Below are positions 1 through 49,399 of a DNA stretch of 64,000 bases, one piece after another. The first letter of the stretch is position 1. Every line of letters begins with the position of its first letter. Source of the stretch: Nemertoderma westbladi (taxonomy: Eukaryota > Animalia > Xenacoelomorpha). The DNA is taken from positions 119,706 through 183,705 of the forward strand of contig JAUCBJ010007945.1 of the NCBI GenBank assembly GCA_032718475.1. The letters are read 5' to 3'. A program made the translations under genes and the position numbers. The notes beneath the pieces were generated by a model, which saw only the letters and a list, made by a program, of their open reading frames with translations, had not been told where the DNA came from and made no database searches.

Positions 1-8
1 ACACCCAC

Positions 9-497
9 ATGGTCACTGAGGACGTCTTACGGACAGTACTTGCGAAGTGCGAGGGGATCATTAATAGCAGACCGCTATATCCGGAGAATGATGACCCTGA
101 GTCATTAGACGTGCTGACGCCTAGCCATTTCCTGATGGAAAGGCCAGCGACCATCGATATGCGGGGTGTAGACCCAGATGAAAGTTGGAAAGTCGCTAAA
201 GCAATAAGCGCAGAGTATTGGAGGAGGTGGGTCGAGGAATACCTACCCACACTCCATAAAAGGAGTAAGTGGAGGAAGCCAAATAGGGAGTTAAGAGAGG
301 GAGATCTCGTAATCGTTACGGATGATACTATCATCAACAACCAATGGCGGTTGGCGAGAGTTGTAGGCACTTACTCCGACGAGGATGGAAGAGTCCGATC
401 GGTAGAAGTGCGGATAGGTGGTAAGATAGGTGCGAAGGACAGAAAAACCTACAGGAGAGCTGTAGGGAAATTCTGTCTGCTAGAAGGAGCACCTTAG
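9..497 (+). CDS. pol: Pol C-terminus (end of integrase and BEL/Pao C-terminal domain), partial
   Basis: INSRPL...LTPSHFL...YWRRWVEEYLPTLHKRSKW...GDLVIV...WRLARVV...DGRVRSVEV is typical of BEL/Pao. There is a 15-nt in-frame deletion relative to A2. Confidence 0.93.
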   Translation: MVTEDVLRTVLAKCEGIINSRPLYPENDDPESLDVLTPSHFLMERPATIDMRGVDPDESWKVAKAISAEYWRRWVEEYLPTLHKRSKWRKPNRELREGDLVIVTDDTIINNQWRLARVVGTYSDEDGRVRSVEVRIGGKIGAKDRKTYRRAVGKFCLLEGAP

Positions 498-641: not shown

Positions 642-1354
642 GTTAGTTAAGAGGTACGTAGTACCTAGTTAGTTAGTTAGAGTTAGAGGGTACGTAAGTA
701 CCGCTAGTTAGTTAGAGTTAGAGGGTACGTAGTACCGCTAGTTAGTTAGAGAGTTAGAGGGTACGTAAGTACCGCTAGTTAGTTAGAGTTAGAGGGTACG
801 TAGTACCGCTAGTTAGTTAGAGAGTTAGAGGGTATGTAAGTACCGCTAGTTAGTTAGAGTTAGAGGGTACATAGTACCGCTAGTTAGTTAGAGAGTTAGA
901 GGGTACGTAAGTACCGCTAGTTAGTTAGAGTTAGAGGGTACGTAAGTACCACTAGTTAGTTAGAGTTAGAGGGTACGTAGTACCGCTAGTTAGTTAGAGA
1001 GTTAGAGGGTACGTAAGTACCGCTAGTTAGTTAGAGAGTTAGAGGGTACGTAAGTACCGCTAGTTAGTTAGAGTTAGAGGGTACGTAAGTACCGCTAGTT
1101 AGTTAGAGTTAGAGGGTACGTAGTACCGCTAGTTAGTTAGAGAGTTAGAGGGTACGTAAGTACCGTTAGTTAGTTAGAGAGTTAGAGGGTACGTAAGTAC
1201 CGCTGTTAGTTAGAGTTAGAGGGTACGTAGTACCGCTAGTTAGTTAGAGAGTTAGGGGGTACGTAGTACCGTTAGTTAGAGGAGAGTTAGAGGGTACGTA
1301 GTACCGTTAGTTAATTGGAATTAGAGTTAGAGGGTACGTAGTACCGTTAGTTAG
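642..1354 (+). repeat. Tandem repeat of ~32-35 bp (GTTAGTTAGAGTTAGAGGGTACGTA(A)GTACCGCTA), about 20 units
   Basis: Directly visible; each unit carries the hairpin GGTAC-GTA(A)-GTACC. Confidence 0.97.
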
Positions 1355-1843
1355 AAGAGAGAGAGTAAGAGGTAAAAGGGGTATATAAGATATAGATATT
1401 AGTTAGCAGTTAGTAGCGAGAGGGGGGCATGTGAGTACAGCTGGGTAAATCGTGTGGCCACACGACGCATACTGCTGTACTACATAGGCCCACAGAGTAG
1501 GCCAGAATGTGGATTAGAGAATAGAATAATCCATAGGCAGTAGTAAGTAGTAGGACAGTAGAATCAAAATTAAATAGATAAATAAATAGAATAGGGCTGA
1601 AAGTTACAAATAATGGCAACACAAGGAAAGTTATTCTAGAACATAATAAAAGTAACGGACAGAAATCGTAAATTACGCTCATTTACTAGCTTCAAAATTA
1701 ATTAGTAATAATTTAGGCTAAAAGGCGCAGTTAAGTAAGAAATAGGCCATTATCGGACCGTACAGAACATCCTAGATTCATCACTCATCTGTATTGCGCC
1801 TTGGTAAGGCACCACCTTGCAGGTGAGCGAGTGAGTGTTCGGA

Positions 1844-4390
1844 ATGGCGAGCAAGTTGATCAGAAAGAGAAAGGCGGAGTCAGGAGGAAAGGAGATACTG
1901 GTGGATTTCACCGAGAGGCATCCGGAAGAGAAGACGAGAGGATATTACGAGAGGTTGGAAAGGGGTCACGCGGCACGAGCGCTGCAGGATCACTTCCGGG
2001 AGATGAACGAACAGTGGCTGGTCGGGACCTATGGGACGCCGTCGCTGGACAACGCGATCTTCCAACACTTCCACTACGTGGTGAAAGGGGACGAGGCGAA
2101 GTTCGGGATTCCGAAGTACCCAAGGGAATCACCGAGGAAGGACTGGAAGAGATTCATAGAATCCGTCAACAGAGGAGGATATATGATCCTAGACGATGAG
2201 GGAACCGTGGAAGACGAGGCGGGTTCGAGACGAGGAACGGCGGGGTCGGCCAGGACCATACTCCTACATTTGGCCGCGCCAAATGGGGACATCTTCTTAT
2301 TCGATCTAGGAATGTATGGGAAGAAGGACGGGCCGAAATTAAACCGGTTACCGAAAGCGGTACAAGTCTTGGTAAGAGAGAAGTCGACGACGAAAGTGGG
2401 ATCGGCGATTCGCGAGGATGCGGAGAGAATCGTCGGTCCGGACGCCACCAACCTCCTGGATATGCTGAAGGTCTTTATGGCTATGACGGCACCGGATGGG
2501 TTGGGGGTAGTCGAAAACACAGGCCAATGCGGGGCGGTGGCAATGGGCCAATTATTGGGGCTCGTGTGCCACAAACCGATGGATTGGGGGAAGTTTAGGG
2601 AAGAATACGGAGCAGAACTAGCGAACTCGCTAAAGTGGGGAGCGAGACCGGGAAAGCAGGAGGTATATCAATTCCGCAGGGGAGCGATAAAGGTATATCA
2701 GAAGCGATATATCCTGCAGGAGGACTGGATGATGACAAGTTTGCTTAACTTATTCATGACCGTGGTTATCGAGAGGGAACCAGGGGCATTTCTGTTATCG
2801 GGATCACCCCTAAGCTACAGGAGAGCCTTTAAAGTGGCCTTCGACGGTCTGGTAGACCACCCGGGGCTGAAGGGCGAGTCGGTGTACTACAACAGCCGGC
2901 ATCTGGTAGACGGGGAGACAGATACACCGTATCAGAGATGGGAGCAGCTAGAAACGGATAGACGAGAAGCAAAGCGACTAGAGGAAGTCGCCAGACGGGA
3001 GAGGATAGAAGCAGAGGAGAGGGAAGAGGAGGCCAGGACACAGAGTTACGGCTTCGAGGAACAGGCAGGCCTAGACGAACTTCATTGGACTTCATCAGGG
3101 AGTTCGGGGGAGCTTCTAGGGCGAGAACTGGGATGGACGGTGGGATCACCGAAACAGTCGATGTCGGGGTTGCAAACGATGCCCATACCAGCGGGCGCCG
3201 AAGGCGACCAACCGCCAAGGAAGTTAAGGGAGTTAGAGGGATGGAGAGCTACGGGCGAGAGCCAAGGCGGGAAGGGACATAGTGGATCCATCGGGATACC
3301 GGGGTTGGAGTCACTGCCAGAGGAGGAGGACGACGACGACGAGTTTGGAGAGATGCCGCCCATCGAGAGGATAGGCCACTCGGACACGGACTGGGTTGGC
3401 GGGAGGGTGGTGACGACCAGTGGGGCGAGAGCCTTCTGGGACAAACCCGGCAAGCGGGCCTGGGTGCACAAGGAGCCGGCGATGGATTTCGCGGGGAGCA
3501 CTATCAGGTTGGGCAGGCAACCGGGGACGGCACCACGGGTAGTATTCGGGGAGACGATGCCCAAGAGGGGCGGAGAGATCGACGTAGACAGAGATGCTAA
3601 CGTGGAGAAATTCGCCTATCAGCGACTCCACAGACCGCGGAGATTGCTTGGGATGAAAGACGACGTGGGGCGGGAGACATTGGTACTCGGTTGCGGCTAC
3701 TGTGGGAGACAGACCCACCAGGAAAGGAGCTGCTTGTACCGGTTCCAGAAGGGAACCTTTTGTCTCTACTGCCGAGAGCCAAGCCACAGGATGGGGGCGT
3801 GTCCACGGTTGCATAACCGATGTCCAAAGTGCCACTTTCGGGGACACTACGGACGCGAGTGCGACTGGATGAACGACGAGGAGAAGTTCACAAGATTCGA
3901 GGAGTGGGCCGACGTCGGGGCCATGACGCGTCAGCACATGAAGGCCCAGGAGTTCAAGTGGGGTTTCTTCCTTATCAATCAGGAGACTCACATGGAAATC
4001 ATAAAGCGGAGGCTACTGTTTACCTACCAAGAGGTAGCAACGGCGGCGTCGTACGCCGGAGTGATGAACACGCAAAGATATTTGGACAGGTGGACGCCAC
4101 AGAACCGAAGGGAGTTTAGGGATTTCTTGGCGGAGCATGTACCGCAAGCAATGAAAATGATCCTATGGGACGCCACCAGAGGGAGACAACCGGGCCACTC
4201 TGAGGGGCCACCGGCGAAGCGATATCGGGCACTAATAACACCAGCGCCCAAGGAGCCAACGACCGGGATCAGCAGGGAGGTGGCGGCGAAGGTCCGAAAG
4301 CAGAAAGCGGATCCCAGAGGAACGGTGGTAACCAAGAAACGACCCAGGGAAGAGGACGCCAGGGGGAACTATCCCCAGAGGAACAGATAG
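1844..4390 (+). CDS. Accessory ORF of A1 (848 aa): DEDDy-like 3'-5' exonuclease domain, acidic linker, three CCHC zinc knuckles
   Basis: Exonuclease-like motifs: YMILDDEG, LLHLAAPNGDIFLFD, LPKAVQVLVREKSTTKVGSAIRED, LLDML, YQKRYILQED. Knuckles: CGYCGRQTHQERSC, CLYCREPSHRMGAC, CPKCHFRGHYGREC. The ORF is also intact in A2. Confidence 0.85.
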   Translation: MASKLIRKRKAESGGKEILVDFTERHPEEKTRGYYERLERGHAARALQDHFREMNEQWLVGTYGTPSLDNAIFQHFHYVVKGDEAKFGIPKYPRESPRKDWKRFIESVNRGGYMILDDEGTVEDEAGSRRGTAGSARTILLHLAAPNGDIFLFDLGMYGKKDGPKLNRLPKAVQVLVREKSTTKVGSAIREDAERIVGPDATNLLDMLKVFMAMTAPDGLGVVENTGQCGAVAMGQLLGLVCHKPMDWGKFREEYGAELANSLKWGARPGKQEVYQFRRGAIKVYQKRYILQEDWMMTSLLNLFMTVVIEREPGAFLLSGSPLSYRRAFKVAFDGLVDHPGLKGESVYYNSRHLVDGETDTPYQRWEQLETDRREAKRLEEVARRERIEAEEREEEARTQSYGFEEQAGLDELHWTSSGSSGELLGRELGWTVGSPKQSMSGLQTMPIPAGAEGDQPPRKLRELEGWRATGESQGGKGHSGSIGIPGLESLPEEEDDDDEFGEMPPIERIGHSDTDWVGGRVVTTSGARAFWDKPGKRAWVHKEPAMDFAGSTIRLGRQPGTAPRVVFGETMPKRGGEIDVDRDANVEKFAYQRLHRPRRLLGMKDDVGRETLVLGCGYCGRQTHQERSCLYRFQKGTFCLYCREPSHRMGACPRLHNRCPKCHFRGHYGRECDWMNDEEKFTRFEEWADVGAMTRQHMKAQEFKWGFFLINQETHMEIIKRRLLFTYQEVATAASYAGVMNTQRYLDRWTPQNRREFRDFLAEHVPQAMKMILWDATRGRQPGHSEGPPAKRYRALITPAPKEPTTGISREVAAKVRKQKADPRGTVVTKKRPREEDARGNYPQRNR

Positions 4391-5093
4391 GTTCCCAGAG
4401 TCGAGGGAGAGAGACTGGGACTTGGACGTGGTACGCCTGGAAGGCGCCGCGTGAGACGTACGAACTATTAAGTACAAATCTAATTAATGCAAATAATCAT
4501 ATAAGTGCAATTTGTATGTACGTACGTAGTAATTAGTAATCTACAAATATACGTTCGGAGTAAGTACTATAGTCATACAACCTTTCTCAATTAGCTACTG
4601 GGACTGGGGGATAACTGACTATGGCACTATGGACGAGACACCAGACAATTTCACACTTCTTGAGTGCGACGGCACAAGAGGGGGGGGGAGATTCGTCAGG
4701 AGGAATGAGGTAGTCAAAGTGGGGTTGAGGGACGGAGTAATAGAGCGAAGTGCAGAGAGAGTGCGGACGCAATTCTAGTGTGGGGGGGGGGGGAGAATAA
4801 GAGGCTGAGTGAGGGACGAGGAGGTCCGAGTGTATGAGAGAGTTAGGATGAGAGTGAAGAAGAGATAGGGCGGAAGTGTTGGGGAAACAAAAGTTGCGTG
4901 AGAGGTGAACGCGATCGGCCCGACATGAGACGCCAGGCACACAGGGTAGCGTTATCATACCCATAGGGAGCGGCCTGGAAAGCCGGCTCCGAGAGAAAAG
5001 AATTCCACCCCACACCCGATACTAGATCGGGATCCAGCGGGATTGTAGCGCACTTTTTTGGTTGATGCTATCTTCTTACCGGGAAGATAGCAT

Positions 5094-5102
5094 GGGGGGG
5101 AG
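5094..5102 (+). promoter_or_regulatory. Putative polypurine tract of A1
   Basis: GGGGGGGAG immediately before TGTTAG, also present in A2; other G-runs lie upstream, so the assignment is tentative. Confidence 0.5.
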
Positions 5103-5627
5103 TGTTAGCTTATTCAATCCCGCTAACACCCCATAAAGTTAAGCCGATAAGCAATATTGGGAGCCATGAGATTGGGTAATCATTCACTCGTGCCACCCCA
5201 ATAAGAATGGGAAGGAGAAGCACACAATGAGGGTCAGGGGCCAAACCCCTAACCCAGAGAGAACAGGTGGAGTGAACGGGAACACTCCAAAGGGCGCCAA
5301 CAAGGGTATCAACCAATCAGAGGGGGGAAAGGCATCAATTAGGTAGAGTAACAAGGCCAACCGTGCAATATAGCCACTTGGCAGTAATCATATCAGTTCA
5401 GTTATCTCAGTGCAATACTGGTGCTAGTTTAGGTTAGATAGTTTAGCTAGGGAAGGACCGGGACTTTAGTTACCGTATCCCGCCTTCCGTGTACAACAAT
5501 CTATATCTATATCTCTATACCGATCATTATATACAACGAACGACACGAACCCATTTACTCTTCACACACGGCGGGGACGCGTGAACTAACAACGGATAAA
5601 CCGGGATCCCTCCTGGATCCCGTCACA
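5103..5627 (+). repeat. Family A LTR (3' end firm, 5' boundary tentative)
   Basis: TG...CA ends after a PPT-like tract; homologous to 57809-58346; terminal hairpin CGGGATCC-N5-GGATCCCG. Confidence 0.65.
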
Positions 5628-6843: not shown

Positions 6844-6943
6844 ATCGACTCCTTTTATTCCAAACCGCCCAAAAACCTTAAGTGAGTACATCGACCGTCT
6901 GGATCCCGCCCGAAAATCCCATAATGGCCATGACAAACCACAA

Positions 6944-11154: not shown

Positions 11155-11213
11155 AAAACTGTCAGACTGTACTGCTGTACGACTGTACCGCGGATAATAC
11201 AGCTATACCGAAG

Positions 11214-15355: not shown

Positions 15356-16886
15356 TGTTCGCGGTATTTCAACTTTTTATAAAGCGAGTTGAATATTTTT
15401 TGTATTAATTTAAAATGATTATTCCGATATTACTACTGGGTGCGGGACCATGGGTTTTGGGCACATTCTATAAACTGGGGGCGATTTATGGGCGAACTTT
15501 GGGGCGACTTACAGGGTACGGGACTAATTTCATGTTTATAAGGGCCAAGGGGGGATGGAAAATTCAAGCAGTATTCAGGTTAGCCTGATTACTATTAGGC
15601 CCTGGCCAACTTCCTGCTGCCTGTAGAGGTGGATTTGGTAACGTGCCAGGCCTAAAGGACAAGGACTGCCCTTAGCGGTCCCTGGCCAACAGCAGTTATT
15701 ACGAGCCTGAAAAGGACATCGGAACGCCAGCTGCTTGTGTCAGGGACTTGTGATGGGAAACGACACGACAGACCCCTAGCCAAGCCGTACTGGTTCTCGA
15801 TGATCGTTCCCTTCGGGGTTCGTGAGGGGTGGGACGGACACGCGAAAGGGTCTACCGACTAACAGAGGAAGGGTTTGACGAGGACTGCCCTTAGCGGTCT
15901 CTGGTCAACAGCAGTTATTACGAGCCTGAAAAGGACATCGGAACGCCGGCTGCTTGTACCAGGGATTTGCGACGGGACCGACGACAGACCCCTTAGCCAA
16001 GCCGTACTGGTTCTCGATGATCGTTCCCTTCGGGGTTCGTGAGGGGTGGGACGGACACGCGACGGGGTCGAAAGACAAAGGACTGGACTCTACCGGCCTA
16101 CCGACTGTTCGGAGCAGTTTCTCGGCTGCCGAAGCGACTACAAGCCTGAAAGGGACTCGGAAAGCCTAGGTGGTTGGGTTTCTGCGATGAACCGACGGAC
16201 CCCTAGCCAAGCCGTACTGGTTTTCGATGATCGTCCCCTTCGGGGTTCGTGAGGGGTGGGACGGACACTCGAACGGGTCCACCGACACGACAGACTCCTA
16301 GCCAAGCCGTACTGGTTCTCGATGACCGATCCCTTCGGGGTTCGAGAGGGGTGGTACGGATACGCAACAGAGTCTACCGACTGGACCGACCCTTAGCCAA
16401 GCCGTGCTGGTTCTCGATGATCGATCCCTTCGGGGTTCGGGAGGGGTGGAACGGACACGCGACAGGGTCGACCGACACCGACACTACGGCATCAAGACTA
16501 GGACCGAGGGAAAATCTGGGGAACATTAGTTAGGCTAAAATCTGAGCGAACAGTGGGTAATTAAATAATATACTGTAGGGATTTATATTGTCGTGTATAA
16601 TTATTGTGAATATTTGGTGCATAATTGATTTGGGGAAGCCCAAAATTATTCTCAATCAGGATTGTACATTGTTACAGGATTGTAACAGGGTTCAGGGTTC
16701 AGTGAGATTAACTACATTAAAGAATATATCCAACCAATGCAGCTTTTTCTCAACCGCAATCCTGCATCTAAGAAATTCCTCCTTCTCCACAATCAATATC
16801 CGGTGACTGGCCGGGACTCCGTGGTCTGTAAAGCCCCGCCTCCAGCATCGGCGTTTTTCCCCCCTGGTGTCGGGATAACGGCAACA
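15356..16886 (+). repeat. B1 5' LTR (1531 bp)
   Basis: About 99% identical by eye to 28931-30460. Confidence 0.97.
15660..16470 (+). repeat. Array of hairpin repeats in the B LTR (five UUCG-capped units and three GAAA-capped units)
   Basis: Core TAGCCAAGCCGTACTGGTTCTCGATGA...CCCTTCGGGGTTCG...GAGGGGTGG.ACGGA.AC.C repeated five times, interleaved with GAGCCTGAAA.GGAC units. Confidence 0.92.
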
Positions 16887-16888
16887 AA

Positions 16889-16901
16889 ATTGAGAATAAT
16901 T
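16889..16901 (+). promoter_or_regulatory. Non-tRNA primer-binding site of B1, complementary to LTR 16644-16656
   Basis: ATTGAGAATAATT starts 2 nt after the LTR end; its reverse complement AATTATTCTCAAT lies in the LTR; no TGG start. Confidence 0.75.
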
Positions 16902-17133: not shown

Positions 17134-17325
17134 ATGGAAGTATCGATCACACCCATTGATATAATCCAAGTTGAGCCAGGAATCTGGCACGTCGAGGTTG
17201 AAGTACAAGGAACGAACGTCGGACGATTCAGGATAACCGTTCGGGTGGTCCAAGCTGAGTACAATACCTACGAGGAACTGTTTTACGACATCGCCTATCT
17301 AGCTATCGACGAGGCGCTACAATGA
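17134..17325 (+). CDS. ORF0, 63-aa protein upstream of gag (B1)
   Basis: Identical protein in B2 with five synonymous changes; its stop overlaps the gag ATG (ATGA). Confidence 0.72.
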   Translation: MEVSITPIDIIQVEPGIWHVEVEVQGTNVGRFRITVRVVQAEYNTYEELFYDIAYLAIDEALQ

Positions 17326-20300
17326 CGACAAATAACGTATCCGATACTGATGAGATGGATCACCACACAGACTCCGAAACCGACGAGGTACCGAACATCA
17401 AGAACATGGCTCGTCGACTAGGTGCTCTCAAAGGCGGAGTCACTCGAGCGTACCAACGTATAGAGAAACAACTCAAGGGAGTCGAAACCCCCCTCAACGA
17501 GATACAAACTCAGCTTCAGAGTATCCGAAATATCTTACAAAGATATGAGAGAATGATACAGGCGTACCAAGAACTCATCCCCGCCACCGACCAGGTATAT
17601 TATCCCAAATTGGAAGAACACGTTGCACGCCTAGACGAATTCCGCAAACAACACCGGAGGACCCTTAGCCTCGTGAGAGGCTACGAAGAACAGTACTACA
17701 AGAGAGCTGAAAGAACAGACGCAGAATCGGTGCGAACCTCCAATACCAGGACCACAATTCATCGAAAGAAAGCGGGATCCTCAAGACACCAGCGCTCCAG
17801 CGCTAGGAGCGAGATATCCGGCTCAGCGCGCAGTTCTCAAGGGGGGCCGCCACTCCGAGATCAGCTACGAGAACAGAAGGCATTTGCCCTCAAAGCTCGG
17901 ATGGAAGATGAGTACGTTCAACTGCAAACTGAGCAAGACATATTAGCCGCCGAAATGCAAAAGCGGGAGGCCGAACAAGAGGTCGAACGGCGGGCCGAAC
18001 AACATAGACAGGAGGCTGAACAACGTGAACGAGAGGCCAAAAGGGAGGCTGAACATCGTGAACGAGAGGCCAAAAGGGAGGCTGAACAACGTGAACGAGA
18101 GGCCAAACAGGAAGCTGAACAACGTGAACGAGAGGCCAAACAAGAGATCGAACAACGTAAATGGGAAGCAGAAATGCGTAAACAACACGCCGAGGCCCAA
18201 GCGATTCTCATCCACAAAAAGAATGCGGATATTGCGAAACTCGCGGAATATGAAGCCGCACTTATAGAACGAGATATCCAACTATACGAGGACTGGGAAA
18301 GGGAAATAGATCAGGAATATGAACCAATCCCGGTACCGGAGTTAGAGAAGTCATTTACACCAACAGCGGCAAAACTTCCGAAACCCGAGATCCCGCCTAT
18401 CATACAGTCTACGTTATCGGCACAAGCACCGGTGTTCCATCCCCCACCGGTTACGCTGAAAAATGAGGAACCGTGTTTCCCATCCAACCCCACGACAACG
18501 AGTGTACCCAAGTACGAGCCTGAAAGGGACTCGGAACGGGACGCCACTCCCCGATCCAACAACCCATTTACATCCACACCACAAACCCGTAGTCGCGTCA
18601 TCATTAAAACTCCATCTATCATTGATCCATCGAGTATGGGAGTGAGTGCCAATAACTATCCAGAAGTCGAGGAAATCCTGCCAAGTACCTAACTGATCTA
18701 GACTTTGCTGATGACTTAGGAGTACTCTCAGAATCATTAGAGGGAGCCCAACGGCTCCTCAGCTCATTAGAACATGCTGCTTCTAGTGTTGGTCTTTTTA
18801 TTAACTCCAGAAAGACCAAAATTCTGACAGTTAACTTTGAAAGTCCTCAGCAAGTCTCTGATCGGATGAGCATAAGCTCAAAGGATGGTATGCTTGAGCA
18901 TGTGGACGACTTCTGTTACCTGGGATCATGGATCCGGAAGTCAGGTGAGGACCTTCGAATACGTAAGGGAAAGGCATGGGCATCCTTGAATAGGCTTTCC
19001 AGGATTTGGAAGTCACCGAGAATTAATCGGAAACTTAAGGTCCGATTATTTAGAGCAGCAGTAGTTCCAGTACTCCTCTACGGGAGTCCATGCTGGGCTC
19101 TAACTGCTGAGGACACCAAATCTCTGGATGGCACATTCACAAGAATGCTACGCCGGGTTCATTGTGTCAAGTACAATGCACACATCTCCAACCAGACACT
19201 ATATAACATTGGAGGTGTCTCATTGGTTCCCCCAAGCTTGACACTAGAACAAAATCGCCTCCGCTTTGCAGGACATTGCTTTCGCCGTGAGGACCAGCCA
19301 GTGCATAATCTTGTACTTTGGCAGCCTCATGGAGTGAATAAGCATGGTGGACAGCCCATGACTTTCTTGAGACGCATCTTAAAGGACACTGGCCTTAAAG
19401 ATGCGGATGATCTAGGAAATGTCATGGGTGATAGGGAGTTGTGGCGGTGCAATTTTGTTGACAAGCCGGCACAGCATTCTTAAAAATGCAGCTGCAATGC
19501 AGCATGCCGATCCTAGTAGCCAATAACTATAACCCTCCGAGTCACTCCAGTTCAGACGATGTCGGTATTATCCGGGCGTTGGAAAACCGCCTTGCCATGC
19601 CTAAGATGGAGATCCGCACCTTCGAAGGAGATCCCGTCGATTACCTCAGATTCAAGAAACGGTTCTTTGCGCAGATTGGATCAACGGACATAGCCGACGC
19701 ACAGAAATTGGTATATTTATCGCAATACCTGGGTGACAAACCACGCCGAATTATTGCGTGTTTTGAGGGAGGTTCTCATGAGGCATACTATGACGCATGG
19801 AAAACTCTAGATAAAAGATACGGAAATACCGGAACTATAATTAATAAAACTCTAGAGAGACTGATACAGGACGCGGGATCACTAGGGGACCCACAGAACA
19901 TCCAGGAATTCTCCGACTCTATGAAGGATGCCTACTATACTCTGAAACCCTTGAATAAGGAGGACCAGGTGAACAACATTCTAAACCTCCGACAGATCGC
20001 CCGGAAGTTCCCCGGATGGCTACAAAGTAAGTGGGCTTATAAATGCGTAGATCTCCGGCGCAGACATCCAGATCGAGATCCTAGCTTCCTTGAAATGTCG
20101 GCATTCCTGGACATTATCTCCGAAGCCATGAATGACTCGATGTTTTCAAAACAGAGTCTCGCCAACTTGGATGGAATAGAGAGCAACTCCAGGAGTAAGA
20201 TACCCCCTCAGAAACCGAGATTCCGCCCCCCACCGGTGAGTACGATGGCCATCACCATGGCCGAGGATTCCGACGACGAAGACTACGAGGAACCGACATC

Positions 20301-23300
20301 CGCCGAGGAATGGGCGTGTTACCTTGCGAATTGGGCACCCGAGAGGGAAGGCATCACAAACTCCCTCCTCTGTCTCTTCTGTGGAGAGAAACATAAAGTG
20401 GAATTCTGCAGGAAGTTTCAGTTCGCCGAACTCGTCCCACGCTTCGAGGCGATAATGAAACACCGAGGATGCTTCCGGTGTCTTGGAACAGGTCACTATG
20501 TTCGGGATTGCGACCAAAGATCGTGCTGTGCCGTCTGTAATGACCAACGTCATCACACGCTCCTCCACATCCCCGCGAACTTCGATTTCACTACCCTCCC
20601 CTTTCGGATCGAAGCCAAGCGAAGAGGAGAAACGAACCACGTTTTCAAAGGAACCCGGACAACCCAACGGAGAGAAACCAACCCGTTTAAAATCTCCACC
20701 GATACACCACAAGTAACAAATATTTCAGCCACGATTAATCTTATAAATCGCCGCTACAGGGTATTCGCAAAGGTAATCCCAGTAAGGATTCAAGGAGTCG
20801 GCAAATCCCTGACGACGCTCGCGTTCCTTGATAACGGGTCTGACGGAACCATCATCGACCGGGATTTCCTCGAGCAACTCGGCCTAGAATGTGAACCTTG
20901 TAAACGGCCCATACAAACCATCACCGATAACAGAGAGGTAGAGTCCGGGGAGGTGCAACTCCAGATGGAAGGAGTGATGAAGGGCTACGAAACGGTTAAG
21001 TTAACCATCAAGAACGCCTTGGTACACACAGACCTCCGAGTGCGGTTCCGACAATCGGCCGAGTATGCCCCCCTCATACAATTGGACCGAGACGATGTAG
21101 ATCTGAGGTGTCCGCAGTTGGACGTAAGCTGCATCACCCTACTGATCGGACTTGATACACCGGAACTACACATCCCCACCGGAGATATCGCCCGATCTAT
21201 AAAACAGGATGACGGATTTTATGCTGAACGAACAATAATGGGATGGACACTCTGCGGCATTAAGGAAGAAACTACTGACACCTATACCTACCTTCCCAAA
21301 TGTCAGATTAAAGAGAATGCAACCTCCGTGGGTTATTGCTCAGCTACTGACCTTGACGAGGATTTGTTTCTGGAGACCGAGAAAACCCAACAAAAGATGA
21401 CGAAATATTTTAATCTAGAGACCCAGGAGTTCGCTGAAAAGGACGAAAACCCGTCCAAAGAGGATCAATATTGTATGGACGTTCTCGACCAGGCCACGTT
21501 CAAAGACGGACACTGGTGTTCACCTATGTTATGGAAGGACCCAAACAAACCAATGGCAAACAACGCCAGCATGGCACTTAGGCGACTTAAGGGGATTCTA
21601 CGCCGGCTGAATGACCAACCCGAGATAAAGGAGAAATATAATACCGTAATCCAAGGATATCTCGACGATGGATTAGCAGAAATGGTACCACGGAATGAAC
21701 TGCAAGGTGGTAAAAGAACATATTATCTCCCAACCCACTATGTGGTAGAAGCCCGGAAGGGTGGGAAAATCCGAATGGTAAATGATGCCGCCGCTATGTA
21801 CCAGGGCGAATCCCTAAACAGTCAGCTTTACACGGGACCCAACATATATAGTACACTCATCGGCGTATTGATCAGGTTCAGGGAAAACCGGGTAGCATTC
21901 ACCTGCGACATCAAGGCCATGTTTCATCAAGTTCGTACGCTACCAAGAGACTCCGACTGTCTACATATCCTATGGACGGATAAAACACTAACTCAACAGG
22001 AGATTAGTCAACTTACGATAAAGGACGTAGACATAATGCGTATGGTCGTCAGGATCTTCGGCGCTAAGGACTCGCCGGTAGCATGCAGTGACATGCTGAA
22101 GAGGACGGCAACTATGTGCGAAAACGAGTTCCCTCCAACCGTCATAGAAACCATCCGACGATGCTTTTACGTGGACGATGGATGCGCCGGCGCAGATAAT
22201 GTGGACGAGGCATATCGGCTAGCAATGGGGATGGTAGAATGTCTAAAGAAAGGAGGTTTTCCGCTCGTGAAGTTCAGATCCCACGACAAAACACTTATGG
22301 AAAAGTTTCCGGAGGACATCCGACTGGAAAATAACAAAATGTATTCGGAGGATGTGGAACACCGTGTACTCGGGATTGAATGGGACATAGAATCAGACGA
22401 ATTCATTTTCAAATATAAACCCCTACCCAAGCCTATGACAAAAAGGGGATGTTTGTCGATAAAAAGCGCCATCTTCGACCCAATAAATTTCATATCTCCA
22501 GTAACCTTGGCCGGAATGAACCTGATTAAGGAAATGTGGATAGAAGGACTGGGATGGGACGAAGAACTCCCCCCACACCTCAGCGTCAAATGGAGAAAAT
22601 GGACGGAGCAGCTCGAACACCTACATCTTATGCGGATACCTCGACCGTTCTTCCTCGATAAACTACCCACCGATATCTTCCAGCTCCATACCTTCTCGGA
22701 TGCTTCGAATACCGGAATTGGCGTAGTCACCTTCTTACGAAGACTCAGCAATGATGGAAACGGCGATACGAGCTTCTTATTTTCTAAAGCCAAGACAGTA
22801 TCCGGGGAATTCGTAGCAACGATTCCAAGACTCGAGCTACAGGCTGCAGTTTGGGCAGTAAGACAGAATCGCATGGTCATGCGGAACCTACGAATCCCCA
22901 TCGAGTCTCAACACTTCTGGGTCGATTCGAGTATAGTTCTCTATTATCTCCACTCTCCATCACGGCGTCACACTACATTTGTTGCGAACCGAGCCACGGA
23001 GATTAAACAGTGTACCGGCCGAGAACAGTGGCACCATGTGAACGGGAAAGAAAATCCAGCGGACTTATCAAGCCGAGGTGCCACCCCAAAACAACTCGGT
23101 AAAAGTAAACTCTGGCTTACAGGCCCGGAATTCCTACAGCAACCACAATTAACATGGAGTACCCGATTCGACCCCGAACTCGATAGCGGAAAATACTCCG
23201 AGGACGATAAAGAGATCCGTAAAGTCCATAGAAGCAACGCAGTGGAAATTTATAGCTGTCTGACTGAGCCTGCAAAGGACTCGGGCAGGCACTATAACGT

Positions 23301-24873
23301 TGCGACGATCATGCAACCAGCGGCGTCTTTACATCTGTTGATCGAGCGAACCTCTTCAATGAGACGGCTCATCCACCACATTATAACCCTTCGCAACTTC
23401 CTACGGTGGAAAAACAACAAGCCGATAGTTCAACGGAGTATACAAGAACTCATTATCGCGGAGAAGTGTATCGTTGGATATGTCCAGAGAGAAAGTTTCC
23501 CCGATGAGTGGGAACAACTCAGTGCGGGCAAGACCTTGAAACCGGATAGCCCAGTCTACCAACTGAGACCAATGATGGGAGAGGACGGACTGATCCGACT
23601 GAATACCCGGATGGCAAACGCCCCGGTCGAATATGAGGTTAAATACCCGGCGCTTCTGCCCGGAACTTCAACACTAGCCAAGCTATTAATTCAACAATGT
23701 CACGAGGAGAACCATCACGCAGGACAAAACTGGATTATAGCTAATATAAGACAAAGATATTGGATCACACACATCCAGCCACTGATCCGGAAAGTGTTGA
23801 AACGTTGCTTTGTCTGCAGAAGATATCTAGCGCCACCACTCACACAAAAGATGGCCGACTTACCAGCCACCCGTCTACAAGCAGATTCCCCACCGTTCTA
23901 CATCACCGGAGTGGACTGCTTCGGACCGTTTACGGTCATCGAACGGCGATCCAACATCAAATGCTGGGGAGCCATCTTCACCTGCCTTAGGTCTAGGGCA
24001 ATCTACCTAGACATTGTGGTAAACCTGACGCAACACGCATTCATCAACGCTCTGCGTCGGTTCGTGGCGAGCAATGGGACATGTCGTCACATGTATTCCG
24101 ATAACGGCACAAACTTTGTGGGAGGAGAAAGAGAACTTAGAGAGGCGATCGAGGGATGGTTTACCGATAACACCGCATCCCAAGTCTGGAAGGAACACCA
24201 GATACAGTGGCACTTCCAGACCCCCTTAGCACCCCATACGAGCGGGGTATGGGAGAAACTGATCGACCTAGTGAAACGATCCATGCGCGTCGCTCTAGGA
24301 GACACCCGGGTAACCCATGACACCCTCCGCACAACATTCTGCGAGATCACGGCTACCCTGAACAACCGACCCATTGTCCCTATCCGCGACGACCCCACAG
24401 ACCTGGAGCCCCTTACTCCTAATCACCTACTGGGGAGACCTAAAACTCATGTTCTCCCGGAGACAATGTTTCCGGATCCCAACGATATTACGAGACATAC
24501 AAACTGGAAGAAGGCCCAAGCGTTGGCAGCGCATTGGTGGAGAATCTGGGCCCAGGAGTACCTCATAACCCTCCGGACCAGGAGGAAGTGGAACAACACC
24601 TACAGGAATGTCGAAGTTGGCGACATGGTACTAGTAAAAGAAGACCTTAAAGACCGCGTCCACTGGCCTGTGGCGCGAGTCGTGGCAATACAACCGAGTA
24701 AAGACGGACTTGCGAGGACTGTGACGATACGAACGGCAAAGGGCCACTACCAACGCCCTATCCAGAGGCTGTGCCTTCTCGAAGGCAATGACAGCGGTGA
24801 CTCTACGAGAGGTGATAAGTTCCCTACTCAAGATCCTGCTGCAGACATTGGTGACAATTACAAATGCGTATAA
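17322..24873 (+). pseudogene. gag-pol: B1 gag-pol polyprotein, interrupted by the RTE insertion at 18660-19518
   Basis: Coiled-coil N-terminus; TFEGDPVDYLRF; CLFC/CFRC/CAVC knuckles; PR FLDNGS; RT FYVDD; RNase H FSDAS; IN GVDCFGP...YSDNGTNF...WEKLI. Confidence 0.95.
18660..19518 (+). mobile_element. 5'-truncated RTE-like LINE inserted in B1 gag
   Basis: 12-bp TSD GCCAATAACTAT (18648-18659 and 19519-19530); absent from B2; DFADDL, FCYLGS, KVRLFRAAVVPVLLYG; (TAG)n tail. Confidence 0.95.
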
Positions 24874-26160: not shown

Positions 26161-28756
26161 ATGGACCCAAATCGCCAAATTATCGGCGAATTACGTAACA
26201 CGATAGATCTACTGGAATATTCGCAACCCGGATCCCCTGACTTTGATACAAATTGGAGCACCCTGCTAAATGAGAACGTGCGAGTCGTTAAATTCACCGG
26301 GCGAGAGGGACCGGATTCCAAGAATCTACGAGCCCTCCGGTTAGCCGATGCTAGTACGAGACTGAAAAGAACTCGGAACGCAAAGGCAACCGTAGGGGAC
26401 GATTCGTCGTTTTGGGAAACGTTCCGGCAGAGCGTCTACAGATCCCGATGTTTGATCTACGACAACGAGGGAAACGCGACGCCCACCTCGAAAGCGATTA
26501 CGTTGGTGAGATGTCAAAGTTTCGTCGACGACAAGAGTACGTACCTCGCCCACTGGGGAAACCTGTCGGAGTGTACGGCGACGCTTCGAGAGGAACGTAT
26601 ATCGACCATCCAGAATCGACTACCAGGAAAAGTACGGGGCGAAAGAATACGGTCGATCCTTGGTCGTCGTCCTCGGAACCCTGGACGGTTTGGTATTGGT
26701 GTGTCGAATATTTCCGACACCCAGACAGGAAGTGCAGGCAGCCGGAGCGATCTGGTTGCTACCTCCGGAAATCCAAAAGATCCTCTTCGACTTCGACGTC
26801 ATTAAAATTGGGTCGGATATAAAGGCGGACGTCCGGAACGACTACGCGAACGCTCCTTCAGGAAGAAACCGACGAGACGACCTCAATGCCCTTAGCCATT
26901 GCGTCGACACTCAAACGCTACTAGCCTGGTTACGATTCGCCGAGTTCATGCGAGGATTCCAAGAGGTGAGACCGACGAAATCCGGGATCGGCTACCTTGC
27001 TGTGCTAAACGGCGGCATCGACTTCAAACCCCAGAAATTCCGGGACTATAATAAAATATATGGTGGATACCCGGGATTAGAAATAAAGAGCGAGCGAGAG
27101 GGTCGATGGAAGGACGTTGATCGGAAGTGGACGATACACCAAAGGTGGGAGAATCCCGATCGACGGAACTACGTCTATGTCGTTATGGAGTGCTACACCG
27201 TCGCTAAGTTTATCTGTAAAACTCTCGATAACCTTATTACGGCGGTTCCTCTTTCCTTCGTCGACTACGACTGGAACGAGGTTATAAACCACGCATTCAA
27301 AGCGGTCGAGAACATCACACCGGGAGAGACTAAAACACTCGCTGTTATCGATTCCTGGGACGAGAGCGGACCTTACGACATCCCTACGATTACCGAACTT
27401 CTCGGTGCGGAGGAGCCTCTGATTTCTTCGGAAGGGGAAGAAATATGGCTAAATGGGGGTGTTATACTCTCCACCCCGAAGCGACAACTCGAGCCGGAGG
27501 CCGCTTACCAACCGGCCGCCAAACGGGTTGCCTCCTCCGAACCAACGACGGAAGCGGGCGTTTCCTCACCACTCGGCTTCGGTAGCCCTGCGAGGGAGTT
27601 GGTTACTACCTTCGCGTTAAATGACTTCGGTGATACGTGCCAAAGGTTATCCCCATATCCTTTCCCGGGTGGCGAAGACTGGTCGTCGGAGATTCCGAGT
27701 ACCAGCAATCAACGGACCCGCTCAGCGATATTGGTCGAGAAGGGCCCCAGCGCTGCGCCGACTCATGACGATCTCCTCGGAATCCCTCCGTCGAAAACCC
27801 CGGCACCTCTTCTCCGACCAGCGGTGGCTACTACACCCTCCGTTCCTCAGGATCCTATGTGACTAACCCGTTGGTACGCCGAGCAAACCGAATGGATCCA
27901 CCGCCAGAAACGGTCGTCCGAGTTGAGACCGACGGGACACAAAGAAGGTTATCGTAGCGAGGACCTACTATGCAAAAGCCCAGCCTTCCGCGGGCTACCG
28001 ACCACCGCGAATATTCAGAAGAGCGACCGACGACTCGAGTATCACGTCGGCGTCCCGATTCCGATATTCCCCAGTCTAGAGATGCAGTTGGAGGTGTGCG
28101 GCGACTGTGGTTCGGAGCAGTGCCCACACGGTAGAAGGAATCGGGTTACCGATTCATGCCTCCAGCTCCTCGGGATACTCTATTGCCCATACTGCGCGAC
28201 ATCGGGCCACGACGTTTCCGTCTGTCCGATCCTATATAACCTCTGCACCACGTGCGGTTTCCGTGGACATTCCTCTAGCCCCCGCTGCTATATCAAATGT
28301 CCTACCAAAGACGTTACCGCTATGGGAAATATGGTCATGTTTGAAACATATGCAAACAGCCACATAAAGACCAAGGTTCGGAGAAACGCTCGGAATATCG
28401 CGCAGGAGATGGCGTGCGGGTACTTCTCCTTCCCGGAACGCCTCCACACGTCGGCCACGCTGCCTTTCCATTACGTGGATTTGTTGCTGAGCGCTGGATT
28501 ATTCGGCCCATTCGAAGTCATTAGACGCTTATACTCGTATAAAGAGGAGTTCGGTGACGGAGAGTGGTTCCTCGAGGCTCGCAACTCCGAGTTGGAACGA
28601 CGAACCGATATGATCCCAATGCCATCGAAAGGAAGAGCCGCCAGGAGACAAGCCGAAGCGTTGCTCACGATGGATGTTGACGCTCCTCTACCAGCTATAG
28701 CGATCGACGAGAGCCGATGGGCGAAGAGGCGAAAGGCGTATCAGAGAAAGAAATAG
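26161..28756 (+). pseudogene. B1 accessory ORF: DEDDy-like exonuclease and CCHC knuckles (5-nt deletion near 26616, stop at 27860-27862)
   Basis: LIYDNEG, LLPPEIQKILFDFDVIKIGSDIKAD, CVDTQ, SGIGYLA, YVYVVMEC; CPYCATSGHDVSVC and CTTCGFRGHSSSPRC. The B1/B2 consensus gives one ORF of about 866 aa. Confidence 0.85.
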
Positions 28757-28921
28757 TGGATCGGGATATTCCAGGAACATTTATCGAACATTTATTTTTA
28801 TACATATATATATAAACTCTAGGCCAAATTAATTAAAACTATGCAATATTAAATTTGGGTTTTTTATATTGGGAATGACCTACGCAAACTCAATCTACCG
28901 ATAGACCTCACGAAGGTCATT

Positions 28922-28930: not shown

Positions 28931-30460
28931 TGTTCGCGGTATTTCAACTTTTTATAACGCGAGTTGAATATTTTTTGTATTAATTTAAAATGATTATTCC
29001 GATATTACTACTGGGTGCGGGACCATGGGTTTTGGGCACATTCTATAAACTGGGGGCGATTTATGGGCGAACTTTGGGGCGACTTACAGGGTACGGGACT
29101 AATTTCATGTTTATAAGGGCCAAGGGGGGATGGAAAATTCAAGCAGTATTCAGGTTAGCCTGATTACTATTAGGCCCTGGCCAACTTCCTGCTGCCTGTA
29201 GAGGTGGATTTGGTAACGCTCCAGGCCTAAAGGACAAGGACTGCCCTTAGCGGTCCCTGGCCAACAGCAGTTATTACGAGCCTGAAAAGGACATCGGAAC
29301 GCCAGCTGCTTGTGTCAGGGACTTGCGACGGGAAACGACACGACAGACCCCTAGCCAAGCCGTACTGGTTCTCGATGATCGTTCCCTTCGGGGTTCGTGA
29401 GGGGTGGGACGGACACGCGAAAGGGTCTACCGACTAACAGAGGAAGGGTTTGACGAGGACTGCCCTTAGGGGTCTCTGGTCAACAGCAGTTATTACGAGC
29501 CTGAAAAGGACATCGGAACGCCGGCTGCTTGTACCAGGGATTTGCGACGGGACCGACGACAGACCCCTTAGCCAAGCCGTACTGGTTCTCGATGATCGTT
29601 CCCTTCGGGGTTCGTGAGGGGTGGGACGGACACGCGACGGGGTCGAAAGACAAAGGACTGGACTCTACCGGCCTACCGACTGTTCGGAGCAGTTTCTCGG
29701 CTGCCGAAGTGACTACGAGCCTGAAAGGGACTCGGAAAGCCTAGGTGGTTGGGTTTCTGCGATGAACCGACGGACCCCTAGCCAAGCCGTACTGGTTCTC
29801 GATGATCGTCCCCTTCGGGGTTCGTGAGGGGTGGGACGGACACGCGAACGGGTCCACCGACACGACAGACTCCTAGCCAAGCCGTACTGGTTCTCGATGA
29901 CCGATCCCTTCGGGGTTCGAGAGGGGTGGTACGGATACGCGACAGAGTCTACCGACTGGACCAACCCTTAGCCAAGCCGTGCTGGTTCTCGATGATCGAT
30001 CCCTTCGGGGTTCGGGAGGGGTGGAACGGACACGCGACAGGGTCGACCGACACCGACACTACGGCATCAAGACTAGGACCGAGGGAAAATCTGGGGAACA
30101 TTAGTTAGGCTAAAATCTGAGCGAACAGTGGGTAATTAAATAATATACTGTAGGGATTTATATTGTCGTGTATAATTATTGTGAATATTTGGTGTATATT
30201 GATTTGGGGAAGCCCAAAATTATTCTCAATCAGGATTGTACATTGTTACAGGATTGTAACAGGATTCAGGGTTCAGTGAGATTAACTACATTAAAGAATA
30301 TATCCAACCAATGCAGCTTTTTCTCAACCGCAATCCTGCATCTAAGAAATTCCTCCTTCTCCACAATCAATATCCGGTGACTGGCCGGGACTCCGTGGTC
30401 TGTAAAGCCCCGCCTCCAGCATCGGCGTTTTTCCCCCCTGGTGTCGGGATAACGGCAACA
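28931..30460 (+). repeat. B1 3' LTR (1530 bp)
   Basis: Direct repeat of 15356-16886. Confidence 0.97.
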
Positions 30461-30825: not shown

Positions 30826-32010
30826 CACATGCTAGCAATCGATCTGACTGCTGCCTTTGACAGCATCGATCACAGAACACTTTTCGAAAAGCTACAAAAA
30901 ACAGACATTAACAAACGACTAATTAATCTACTGGAAGCATATTACCACAACTCAACCGCCCAAATGAGAACAGGCAGAAGGGTGTACACTGAACCTATCA
31001 AACTCGACAAAGGAATACGGCAAGGAGGCATACTATCTGCCTGGTTCTTCAATTTCTACTTACAAGACCTCTTCGAGACCCTAGGAGAATCTGGGCTAGG
31101 ACTACATCTCGGCACAGAATCATACCCGGCCCTTGGTTACGCCGACGACCTATTGTTGCTAGCAAACCTTAAGGATGATCTCCAACAACAAATCGATATA
31201 TGCACCACGTTCTTTGCCAGAAATGGCCTCACCATAAACACAAAAAAATCGCATTACGTAAGATGTTCCGGTACACAACCAAAAACAACACCAATTGAAG
31301 GTACGCAACCAAAAACAACACCAATAGAAGGCTACACCATACAAGTAGGACCAGTATTCCTACACGAGGAGGCCAGCTGTAAATACCTAGGTTTACCACT
31401 TCCAGGTACACCGCAAACGATCAGAGACCACATAACCAAGCGCTGCTTTTGGAATGTATCAAGGATGCGATCACGGGGCCTAACAGCCCACAACATACCT
31501 CTACAAATCACCAAAAAAATCTGGAACACAATCTGCCTCCCGTCTATCGCATATGGTATTGCAAATGTGGATGACGCCTCTGTGACCCAACTATCAATAG
31601 TAATACGAAAGGCGATGAGATCGATCATTGGCGTGGGGAACTACGTCTCAAACACCACCTTACACAAACTGTTGCGATGCGACGACCTGGAATCAATCGT
31701 CGCACACAGCAGATGTAGACTCCTGTACAGCGCCATCAACTCAGGAAACATAAAAATTGCACACCTCTACACAACACTGTTTAGCCAACACCTATGCGAT
31801 ACCTACACAGAACCAACTTTTGTCGAGTACTCCATTGCGAGTTGGAGGAGTAACCTACCCACCCTACACAGCATCGTAACAGCCTCCTACAACATAAAAC
31901 TGGTGATCAAGGGCTCACGAAAACACTGCAAGCCCGTCCTGAGCACCAAGGACTGTGCATTATTAATACCCCACTTACAGGGACCGCACGACAGACCCAA
32001 AACTGGTGTG
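30826..32010 (+). pseudogene. LINE-alpha ORF2, 3' half (RT core and C-terminus)
   Basis: AIDLTAAFDSI, GIRQGGILS, LGYADD, KYLG; contains a 30-bp tandem duplication (GTQPKTTPIE x2). The 3' boundary is approximate. Confidence 0.9.
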
Positions 32011-32034
32011 ACCGTACGGGCGGGGGGGGGGGGG

Positions 32035-35000: not shown

Positions 35001-35062
35001 CAGTGCGAGTGATCGGGGAAGGCAATTGATCAGTAACAACACTAATGCTGGTTGATAGTGGA
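32035..35062 (+). pseudogene. gag: A2 gag and protease start (frameshifts, in-frame TGA at 35027-35029)
   Basis: KFDGSRPEEYLQF...AWRALDREYG; CQLHANALHQTMNC and CSRCVMSGHRAREC; LLGVVPVRV...MLVDSG. The 5' boundary is uncertain. Confidence 0.8.
32359..32592 (+). repeat. 60-bp coding tandem repeat (GHVVGRQGVAGLDGPSEGLV, about four copies)
   Basis: Directly visible. Confidence 0.9.
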
Positions 35063-36673: not shown

Positions 36674-36686
36674 ATTAAGAATAATT
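36674..36686 (+). promoter_or_regulatory. Non-tRNA primer-binding site of B2, complementary to LTR 36437-36449
   Basis: ATTAAGAATAATT versus AATTATTCTTAAT; compensatory change relative to B1. Confidence 0.75.
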
Positions 36687-36922: not shown

Positions 36923-37114
36923 ATGGAAGTATCGATCACACCCATTGATATAATCCAAGTTGAGCCAGGAATCTGGCACGTCGAAGTTGAAGTACAAGGA
37001 ACGAACGTCGGACGATTCAGGATTACCGTTCGGGTGGTCCAAGCTGAGTACAATACCTACGAGGAACTGTTTTATGACATCGCGTATCTAGCTATCGACG
37101 AGGCGTTACAATGA
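36923..37114 (+). CDS. ORF0, 63-aa protein upstream of gag (B2)
   Basis: Protein identical to B1 ORF0; ATGA overlap with gag. Confidence 0.72.
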   Translation: MEVSITPIDIIQVEPGIWHVEVEVQGTNVGRFRITVRVVQAEYNTYEELFYDIAYLAIDEALQ

Positions 37115-49394: not shown

Positions 49395-49399
49395 GTGGA

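Follow-up and report, generated by a model that had tools for sequence, protein, structure and literature searches.

A predicted DEDDy-type exonuclease gene with zinc knuckles in the third-gene position of two BEL/Pao retrotransposon families from Nemertoderma westbladi

Described third genes of the BEL/Pao retrotransposons, which have long terminal repeats (LTRs), are env-like (PMC8742986, and the available portions of PMC3118150, PMC13524379 and PMC2774666). For this family, the Belpaoviridae, the profile of the International Committee on Taxonomy of Viruses (ICTV) gives a length range of 4.2-10 kb (PMC8742986). Third open reading frames (ORFs) encoding DEDDy nucleases have been described, in the accessible text of two reports, in the bdelloid rotifer LTR retrotransposons Juno and Vesta, which share them with Athena/Terminon elements (PMC5408684; PMC6431247), and DEDDy is cited as a known accessory domain in the available part of PMC6338049. 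The fingers of TbRND, the RNase D of Trypanosoma brucei, bind RNA and raise guide RNA cleavage, and its authors regard the combination of DEDDy and CCHC as very unusual (both from the excerpted text of PMC7797062). Here we analyzed a 64,000-nucleotide stretch of Nemertoderma westbladi DNA (assembly GCA_032718475.1, contig JAUCBJ010007945.1, positions 119,706 to 183,705; the window), which proved to be a nest of retroelements that includes two BEL/Pao families, A (copies A1 and A2) and B (copies B1 and B2). All four copies have a third gene, ORF3, between pol and the 3' LTR, starting 1245-1346 bases after the pol stop. ORF3 is a real, selected and apparently undescribed accessory gene. Judged from sequence comparisons, its N-terminal half very probably adopts a DEDDy fold of the WRN/EXD type, whose active site would read D-E-D-(Y)-E.

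An initial annotation had reported an ORF of ~850-870 aa in each of the four elements. The gene was indeed found in all four; however, only two of the four frames are open, both in family A (848 and 850 aa). Both B copies are broken, which that annotation, in implying intact B frames, had missed. The breaks in B1 and B2 lie at different places and are therefore private to each copy. The four genes and the parts of the A1 gene are as follows.

1844..4390, forward strand: A1 ORF3, intact, beginning with ATG, 848 aa
2132..2770, forward strand: predicted DEDDy 3'-5' exonuclease domain of A1, residues 97-309
2192, 2198, 2417, 2708 and 2720, forward strand: A1 catalytic-column residues D117, E119, D192, Y289 and E293, in that order
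3692..3862, forward strand: three CX2CX4HX4C zinc knuckles of A1, residues 617-673
3872..4153, forward strand: post-knuckle segment of A1, weakly common to B and without a family match; a basic tail with motifs like nuclear localization signals (NLS) follows
26161..28756, forward strand: B1 ORF3, broken, with two knuckles; frame change near 26617 and in-frame stop at 27860-27862
45029..47620, forward strand: B2 ORF3, broken, its frame changing near 46030 and again near 47205; the ExoI D lies at 45329 and the ExoII D at 45701
54545..57097, forward strand: A2 ORF3, intact, 850 aa

The layout that had been proposed as common to both families was recovered in each. It consists of the ExoI motif (ILDDEG in A, IYDNEG in B), the ExoII motif LP..Q.....K(V/I)GS.I..D, a low-complexity linker and CX2CX4HX4C knuckles, of which A has three and B two. 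The nuclease domain of B carries a 46-residue insertion right behind ExoI, and the tails of the ORF3 proteins are basic with NLS-like motifs. No env features were seen, as judged by the absence of TM-like (transmembrane) hydropathy and of any Pfam env match, with no dedicated signal-peptide or TM predictor run. The N-termini were charged. In A the 19-residue Kyte-Doolittle maximum was 1.24-1.30; in B a single hydropathy window reached 2.08 and aligned to core β-strands of the nuclease fold. This is in line with the earlier statement that signal peptides and TM helices are lacking. Acceptor-like AG sites were noted 25-55 nt upstream of the ORF3 ATG in both families.

The predicted fold was supported by language-model and profile comparisons. 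When A(90-350) and B(75-334) were queried separately in the ESM Atlas, both adjoined PF01612/WRN-like clusters at 0.93. For each query 25 of the 30 matches lay in the PF01612/WRN-like set, with the family on 34% and 38% of members; the top three for A were unnamed fungal clusters. Bacterial PF01612 proteins were collected as references for the profiles, and WRN-like, RNase D-like and PolA sets were compared. In hhalign, A and B together matched seven bacterial WRN-like exonucleases with a probability of 91 (E 1e-6), and 13 WRN-like sequences with a probability of 84 and a score of 41.3 (A alone 28.5, B alone 33.3). The controls stayed well below these scores, with a maximum of 19.2 for 80 column shuffles and 15.3 for nine pol slices. 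Scores against the RNase D-like and PolA sets (15.8 and 18.9) were no better than those of the shuffles. The WRN-like hidden Markov model (HMM) placed all four ORF3 copies within the top six of 767 six-frame segments, each non-significant, and one of the 13 HMM rows was in the wrong frame. These comparisons agree with the RNase D/WRN/EXD assignment given in the initial annotation.

The catalytic positions were examined within these alignments. A spanned the WRN-like alignment end to end, with D117, E119, D192 and Y289 on catalytic columns, and the ExoI D-x-E and ExoII D of B occupied the same columns as those of A. Identity to the bacterial references was 14-26%, with insertions after ExoI (in B) and before ExoIII. 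Against a eukaryotic PF01612 protein, P0001, A scored 63, and none of 500 shuffles was as good. The canonical ExoIII motif Y-x3-D had no match in A. The ungapped profile picked Y289 there (18.0 versus 3.0 for the next position), so that the fourth acid is E293, a Glu in place of Asp. A different register for A, taken from the MAFFT alignment of A with B, was overruled by this reference-based one. In B, the YVVME register came second (2.7 versus 6.8), and MAFFT preferred an upstream segment without Tyr or acid. The Y-x3-E motif noted earlier in both families was thus upheld in A but not secured in B. We consider it somewhat more likely than not that the predicted nuclease is catalytically active.

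A WRN-guided structure model, in which 13 of the 17 alignment rows were WRN-like, reached a predicted local distance difference test (pLDDT) value of 65.9 and a predicted template modeling (pTM) score of 0.68. It gave 12 Foldseek matches at E<=0.001, including EXD2, RICE1, TbRND, Nibbler, WRN and EXD1, and VIA Z values of 9.6-10.4 with a root-mean-square deviation (rmsd) of 3.5-4.3 over 140-160 aligned residues. Both sets of values are circular, and the matches of this model show compatibility with the fold, nothing more.

The ORF3 genes of A and B are homologous by their sequences. The knuckle region with the downstream segment aligned between the families at E=7e-10, with 27% identity over 149 aa. 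The exonuclease part alone was collinear with ~23% identity but marginal in pairwise comparison (BLASTP E=0.055; 5 of 500 shuffles as good), and the post-knuckle segment alone was likewise marginal (14 of 500). No similarity was found between the N-termini or between the linkers of A and B, where 156 and 465 of 500 shuffles, respectively, were as good. Between the families ORF3 diverges faster than pol, with 23-27% versus 36% identity.

Purifying selection was apparent in both families. The ratio of nonsynonymous to synonymous substitutions (dN/dS) was determined by Nei-Gojobori counts, and the B1 and B2 genes were compared piece by piece. Between A1 and A2, dN/dS was 0.19 over 848 codons (P=1e-14), compared with 0.09 at the pol end. 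By part, the ratio was 0.11 in the nuclease domain, 0.14 in the knuckles and C-domain and 0.25 in the linker; the value of 1.06 in the last 68 codons was based on four changes. Between B1 and B2 it was 0.17 over 854 codons (P=7e-25), with 0.09 for gag-pol; the first ORF3 piece alone gave a non-significant 0.51. The values of 0.19 and 0.17 are thus far from the ratio near 1 that had been named as the outcome speaking against the gene. Among 20 changed ORF3 codons listed for a public run, X1, synonymous changes account for 16; the listing covered 40 of 116 differences, of which 21 fall in ORF3. This run consists of short contigs, 85-99% alike, whose RNA nature is a guess, and it shows diverged copies of both families rather than transcription or splicing. 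These ratios indicate that ORF3 was functional in both lineages until recently. The view of ORF3 as an old, retained accessory module was therefore borne out by the low ratio in the A nuclease domain and by retention across 36% pol identity. One X1 contig bridges 582 bases of the ORF3 linker (3147-3730) with 11 other letters, and probably represents a deleted copy.

Database searches returned no ORF3 homologue. A word-indexed search of 5.8 billion proteins yielded none among 2771 candidates for A residues 60-370 and none among 59 for residues 600-790, and phmmer with A against 1.84 billion representatives gave no match at E<=0.001. Scans of viral, metagenome and prokaryote contigs contained no ORF3 relative, and phages gave one chance match (E=3). 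A mixed profile of ORF3 and WRN-like sequences selected one of 7999 candidates. This was P0001, a eukaryote-like PF01612 protein without a knuckle array or element context. The 926 aa of P0001 comprise a tandem pair of WRN/EXD-like domains, of which the second has changed catalytic motifs, and C2H2-like fingers at the C-terminus. Searching with pol for relatives with flanks found none in viral contigs and two short metagenome contigs, both of which end before the ORF3 position. The blank ORF3 searches, which did not extend to Repbase or Dfam, are compatible with relatives as distant from each other as A is from B. In the open literature (Repbase, Dfam, subscription journals and supplements being outside its scope) no published exonuclease ORF or self-priming was found for BEL/Pao, and the excerpted text of PMC3601003 and PMC7968707 contributed nothing specific. 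This accords with the remark of the initial annotation that the architecture is not known from this group.

In the window, family B comprises two full-length elements with TG...CA LTRs of 1.5-1.6 kb, each with a 5-bp target duplication. B1 (15356-30460) is 15.1 kb long and its two LTRs agree at 1516 of 1530 aligned bases; for the 14.3-kb B2 (35063-49394) they agree at 1602 of 1609. Of family A, the window shows probable 3' LTRs only. The A1 element runs off the window start, and no family-A 5' LTR was found within the window, for A2 either. The description of all four as LTR elements therefore holds for B1 and B2, but A1 is a 3' end and A2 lacks a 5' LTR here. B2 lies within A2, inserted at the codons of the protease active site and flanked by a 5-bp target duplication (35058-49399), and splits A2 into gag pieces before it and pol, ORF3 and the 3' end after it. 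The A1 LTR was considered as the 5' LTR of A2 and found unsupported, the best complement after it being 8 nt at +19. The gag-pol domains follow the order protease, reverse transcriptase (RT), RNase H, integrase. Pfam gave Peptidase_A17 (E=5e-38 and 2e-39), DUF5641, DUF1759 and Integrase_H2C2 in B1 and A2. Since both pols contain the Pao peptidase, DUF5641 and integrase, and the gags contain DUF1759, the elements are BEL/Pao. The pols of A and B are 36% identical over ~1090 residues. Membership in the Belpaoviridae rests on the pol sequence and stands despite the departure of the family-B primer-binding site (PBS) from the ICTV profile. The parts of the four copies outside ORF3 are listed below.

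1..497, forward strand: 3' end of A1 pol (integrase C-terminus), near-identical to the A2 pol end with its Pfam DUF5641/integrase matches
645..1361, forward strand: 35-36-nt tandem array of A1 in the pol-ORF3 gap
4416..5627, forward strand: probable 3' LTR of A1, start inferred from the purine tract 4403-4414, ending in GTCACA
15356..16886, forward strand: 5' LTR of B1, 5-bp target duplication
17322..24873, forward strand: gag-pol of B1, with a non-LTR fragment of 786 bp lodged in it at 18734-19519
28931..30460, forward strand: 3' LTR of B1
32007..35062, forward strand: gag region of A2, in pieces, stopping in the protease active-site codons at the B2 insertion; 5' boundary uncertain
35063..36671, forward strand: 5' LTR of B2, 5-bp target duplication
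37111..43779, forward strand: gag-pol of B2, gag stop at 38062-38064
47786..49394, forward strand: 3' LTR of B2
49395..53299, forward strand: pol of A2 (rest of protease, RT, RNase H, integrase)
53445..54060, forward strand: 36-nt tandem array of A2 in the pol-ORF3 gap
57123..58346, forward strand: probable 3' LTR of A2, start inferred

The pol-ORF3 gap of 1.2-1.3 kb holds tandem or low-complexity arrays that are unrelated between the families (645-1361 and 53445-54060 in A; 25749-25884 and 44667-44830 in B). Two copies of this 786-bp non-LTR fragment (DUF6451/RT C-terminus), 98.7% identical, lie at 18734-19519 inside B1 gag and at 58623-59408. Fragments of the long interspersed nuclear element (LINE) type (APE endonuclease, RT, ORF1-like) lie on both strands among the LTR elements, at 6043-15121, 30769-32006 and 59735-61491. 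At gathering scores Rfam matched nothing in the window, nor did it match the B1 LTR region at E<=5, and no tRNA genes were found in the window.

Family B showed a signature of self-priming. The ICTV profile gives the Belpaoviridae an 18-nt PBS complementary to tRNA-Arg or tRNA-Gly (PMC8742986). With a TGG start as the criterion and host tRNAs not compared, no tRNA-type PBS was found behind either 5' LTR of B. In both B1 and B2, the 13 nt from +3 after the 5' LTR match, in exact reverse complement, a segment inside that element's LTR ~240 bases upstream. This segment lies ~25-30 bases behind a TATA-like stretch.

16644..16656, forward strand: candidate self-primer of B1, 13 nt inside the LTR
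16889..16901, forward strand: PBS position of B1, reverse complement of 16644-16656
36437..36449, forward strand: candidate self-primer of B2, inside the 5' LTR
36674..36686, forward strand: PBS position of B2, reverse complement of 36437-36449, with a compensatory change relative to B1

At one position of the pair B1 and B2 differ by a G:C to A:T swap that involves both partners, a compensatory change, and cross-pairing between the two copies extends over only 9 nt. No such match was given by any of 3000 random or 1232 AT-rich 18-mers. Self-primers have been defined, in the accessible text of PMC6317226, by at least 10 nt complementary to the own LTR and starting 0-5 nt after the 5' LTR; B1 and B2 both have 13 nt at +3. 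A change of this kind would be transferred by replication itself, when the primer is copied into the PBS. Behind an 11-12-bp leader hairpin (16927, 36716) the PBS sequence recurs, with the same change. In each of the four B LTRs a GC-rich unit of 95-100 nt is also repeated five to six times (e.g. 15761-16483); one unit folds as a long hairpin (z -2.2) and another does not (z 0.2).

We tentatively propose that ORF3, guided by its knuckles, trims the RNA ends of its own element, with the unpaired 3' tail of the self-primer as the prime candidate substrate. The trimmer function is suggested because of the TbRND analogy. The element's own RNA ends, and the self-primer above all, are favored because retention across such distant lineages fits a core step of the cycle and because there is a step in B for which the 3'-OH must be precise. 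Of the functions raised initially, the processing of RNA or primer gained indirect support from the self-priming signature of B. The predicted WRN/EXD-type exonuclease, tethered to CCHC knuckles, would grip single-stranded RNA and trim the 3' ends of element RNAs. It seems somewhat more likely than not that the nuclease is active and that the knuckles select RNA as in TbRND; they may also bring the protein, bound to genomic RNA, into Gag particles. In B, where the transcript is predicted to start at about 16644 and 36437, the R-derived segment would pair with the PBS, and an imprecise cut, or a short or 3'-terminal R-containing RNA, would leave an unpaired 3' tail. ORF3 would then chew this tail back to the duplex, providing a 3'-OH for the reverse transcriptase. 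A broader and rather doubtful extension is that in a deep BEL/Pao branch the tRNA primer gave way to self-RNA priming and the env slot to a dedicated knuckle-guided D-E-D-E exonuclease that matures this primer. Such a primer trimmer encoded by a retroelement would have no counterpart described so far.

Several points weigh against this proposal. Tf1 makes its self-primer with RNase H alone, according to the available part of PMC7175516. The compensatory change amounts to a single event in a comparison of two copies, and the self-priming signature was seen in family B alone, with no family-A 5' LTR in the window. The fourth acid in A is Glu, not Asp, and the ExoIII position of B is ambiguous in the alignments. 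The NLS-like basic tails would suit a nuclear role as well as a role in particles. Some approaches gave no sign of the fold. Pfam gave no PF01612 or other nuclease match for any ORF3 piece at E<=1 or E<=10, and sequence searches of the PDB with ORF3 gave no nuclease match. An unguided AlphaFold2 model from a four-row alignment had a pLDDT of only 30.7 and no Foldseek match at E<=0.001. Its Foldseek rows (gelsolin and others) are meaningless.

A counter-defense nuclease is possible, though it seems less likely than the trimmer. Such an enzyme would bind, shorten or destroy host small RNAs (piRNA or siRNA precursors, slicer fragments), probably in the nucleus or in perinuclear granules. Overexpression of TbRND depletes guide RNAs (accessible text of PMC7797062), and DEDD genes recur as ORF3 in rotifer elements (available portion of PMC5408684). 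The accessory gene position, the NLS-like motifs and the faster divergence of ORF3 than pol between the families would also suit this role, as would the small-RNA enzymes Nibbler, EXD1, RICE1 and TbRND among the neighbors of the guided model, a circular observation. However, within each family purifying selection prevails, and nothing hints at an arms race. Moreover, mature piRNAs carry a 3' 2'-O-methyl group that makes them resistant to such exonucleases.

It is unlikely that ORF3 is a weak or dead nuclease fold serving as an RNA-binding adaptor, like Egalitarian or EXD1, that together with the knuckles localizes, exports or packages element RNA. The Glu as fourth acid in A, the ambiguous ExoIII in B and the 46-residue insertion of B right behind ExoI could be attributed to lost activity. 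Egalitarian bound to I-factor and other localization RNAs was among the Foldseek rows of the guided model, and the repeated 95-nt hairpin units in the B LTRs could be binding sites. Yet both families, despite ~23% identity of the domain, preserve the ExoI D-x-E and the ExoII D, and in A the ExoIII site still has its Tyr and an acid. A D-to-E variant (DEED) is likewise present in rotifer ORF3s and was interpreted as possibly active in the accessible part of PMC5408684.

An action on DNA, by proofreading reverse transcription or trimming the cDNA ends of these unusually long (14-15 kb) elements, appears improbable. The nearest profile is WRN-like, and WRN and EXD2 act on DNA. The elements exceed the 4.2-10 kb stated for the family (PMC8742986), and Dada transposons carry DEDDy domains proposed for DNA-end processing (available text of PMC3706591). 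Nevertheless, ORF3 is separate from pol, its Gag-type CCHC knuckles point to single-stranded RNA, and PolA-type proofreading domains matched only at shuffle level; proofreading is the least favored of the functional options raised initially. That ORF3 has no DEDD fold or is a neutral passenger is the most improbable reading, since the Atlas, profile and motif evidence agree, with controls, and dN/dS is far under 1 in both families, although sequence homologues are missing from Pfam, the PDB and the databases searched, the unguided fold failed and neither B copy is intact.

Until now, nuclease genes carried by LTR retrotransposons were an unexplained peculiarity of rotifers, where they looked recent and neutrally evolving. 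Strong purifying selection in two lineages with 36% pol identity argues for a genuine role of such genes in the life cycle of retrotransposons. A directly testable protein is available from the two intact A copies, and the self-priming signature of B provides a concrete candidate substrate. Why a retrotransposon needs a 3'-5' exonuclease, whether for primer making, counter-silencing or RNA transport, thus becomes a bench question.

Compared with known systems, the third gene of Juno and Vesta resembles the one described here as a separate ORF after pol, in the env position, of the DEDDy type and without TM or coiled-coil features. In both cases one catalytic Asp is replaced by Glu. The rotifer enzymes are DEED, whereas the order here is D-E-D-E, and the rotifer elements form rotifer-specific lineages that are not described as BEL/Pao in the accessible text of PMC5408684. 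The same text mentions Cys-His-Cys but reports no knuckle array, whereas two to three CCHC knuckles are present here. The ORF3 genes in the window encode ~850 aa and are under strong purifying selection; they were compared with Juno and Vesta by description.

Similar to TbRND, the predicted protein joins a DEDDy exonuclease to a C-terminal array of CCHC knuckles, and the guided model superposed on it with a VIA Z of 9.9 and an rmsd of 3.6 over 160 aligned residues, a circular match. TbRND differs in being a cellular mitochondrial enzyme with canonical DEDD and four fingers behind a 28-residue linker, compared with two to three knuckles behind a ~270-residue linker in ORF3. The sequence match between the two was non-significant (E=0.1) and confined to the knuckles, so TbRND is an analogue, with orthology not implied. 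By this likeness in architecture, it is the only characterized analogue we found for a DEDDy domain joined to CCHC knuckles. WRN, EXD2, Nibbler (Mut-7) and EXD1 (PF01612) share the ExoI D-x-E, the ExoII pattern LP..(l)..l......KvG..i..D and the ExoIII pattern Q..Y...(D/E).W. ORF3 departs from this family in lacking a Pfam match, in its ExoIII Glu and in being encoded by a retrotransposon.

Belpaoviridae with env-like ORFs, such as roo and the mosquito elements with chuvirus-like glycoproteins, share the order Gag-PR-RT-RH-IN, the Pao peptidase, DUF1759 and DUF5641 domains and a third gene before the 3' LTR (PMC8742986; available part of PMC13524379). In the present families this gene is predicted to encode a nuclease-knuckle protein, not a glycoprotein. 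The B elements, with 14.3-15.1 kb and LTRs of 1.5-1.6 kb, are beyond the stated ranges (PMC8742986), and they have no tRNA-type PBS. The word "exonuclease" is absent from the main text of PMC3118150, whose element-sequence supplement lay outside the scope, and from that of PMC13524379. Tf1, Tj1 and sushi likewise have a PBS complementary to a segment of their own LTR near the probable transcript start (excerpts of PMC4600332, PMC6317226 and PMC7175516). However, the lineages so described in these excerpts are Ty3/gypsy and some plant copia, not BEL/Pao. In Tf1 an 11-nt primer is cut by RNase H, and the available text of PMC7175516 mentions no nuclease ORF3. Taken together, ORF3 is like the rotifer class in position and, by its predicted domains, like TbRND in architecture. 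What is new is the BEL/Pao host, the WRN/EXD-like D-E-D-E domain, its fusion to knuckles, strong selection in two deep lineages and the co-occurring signature of self-priming.

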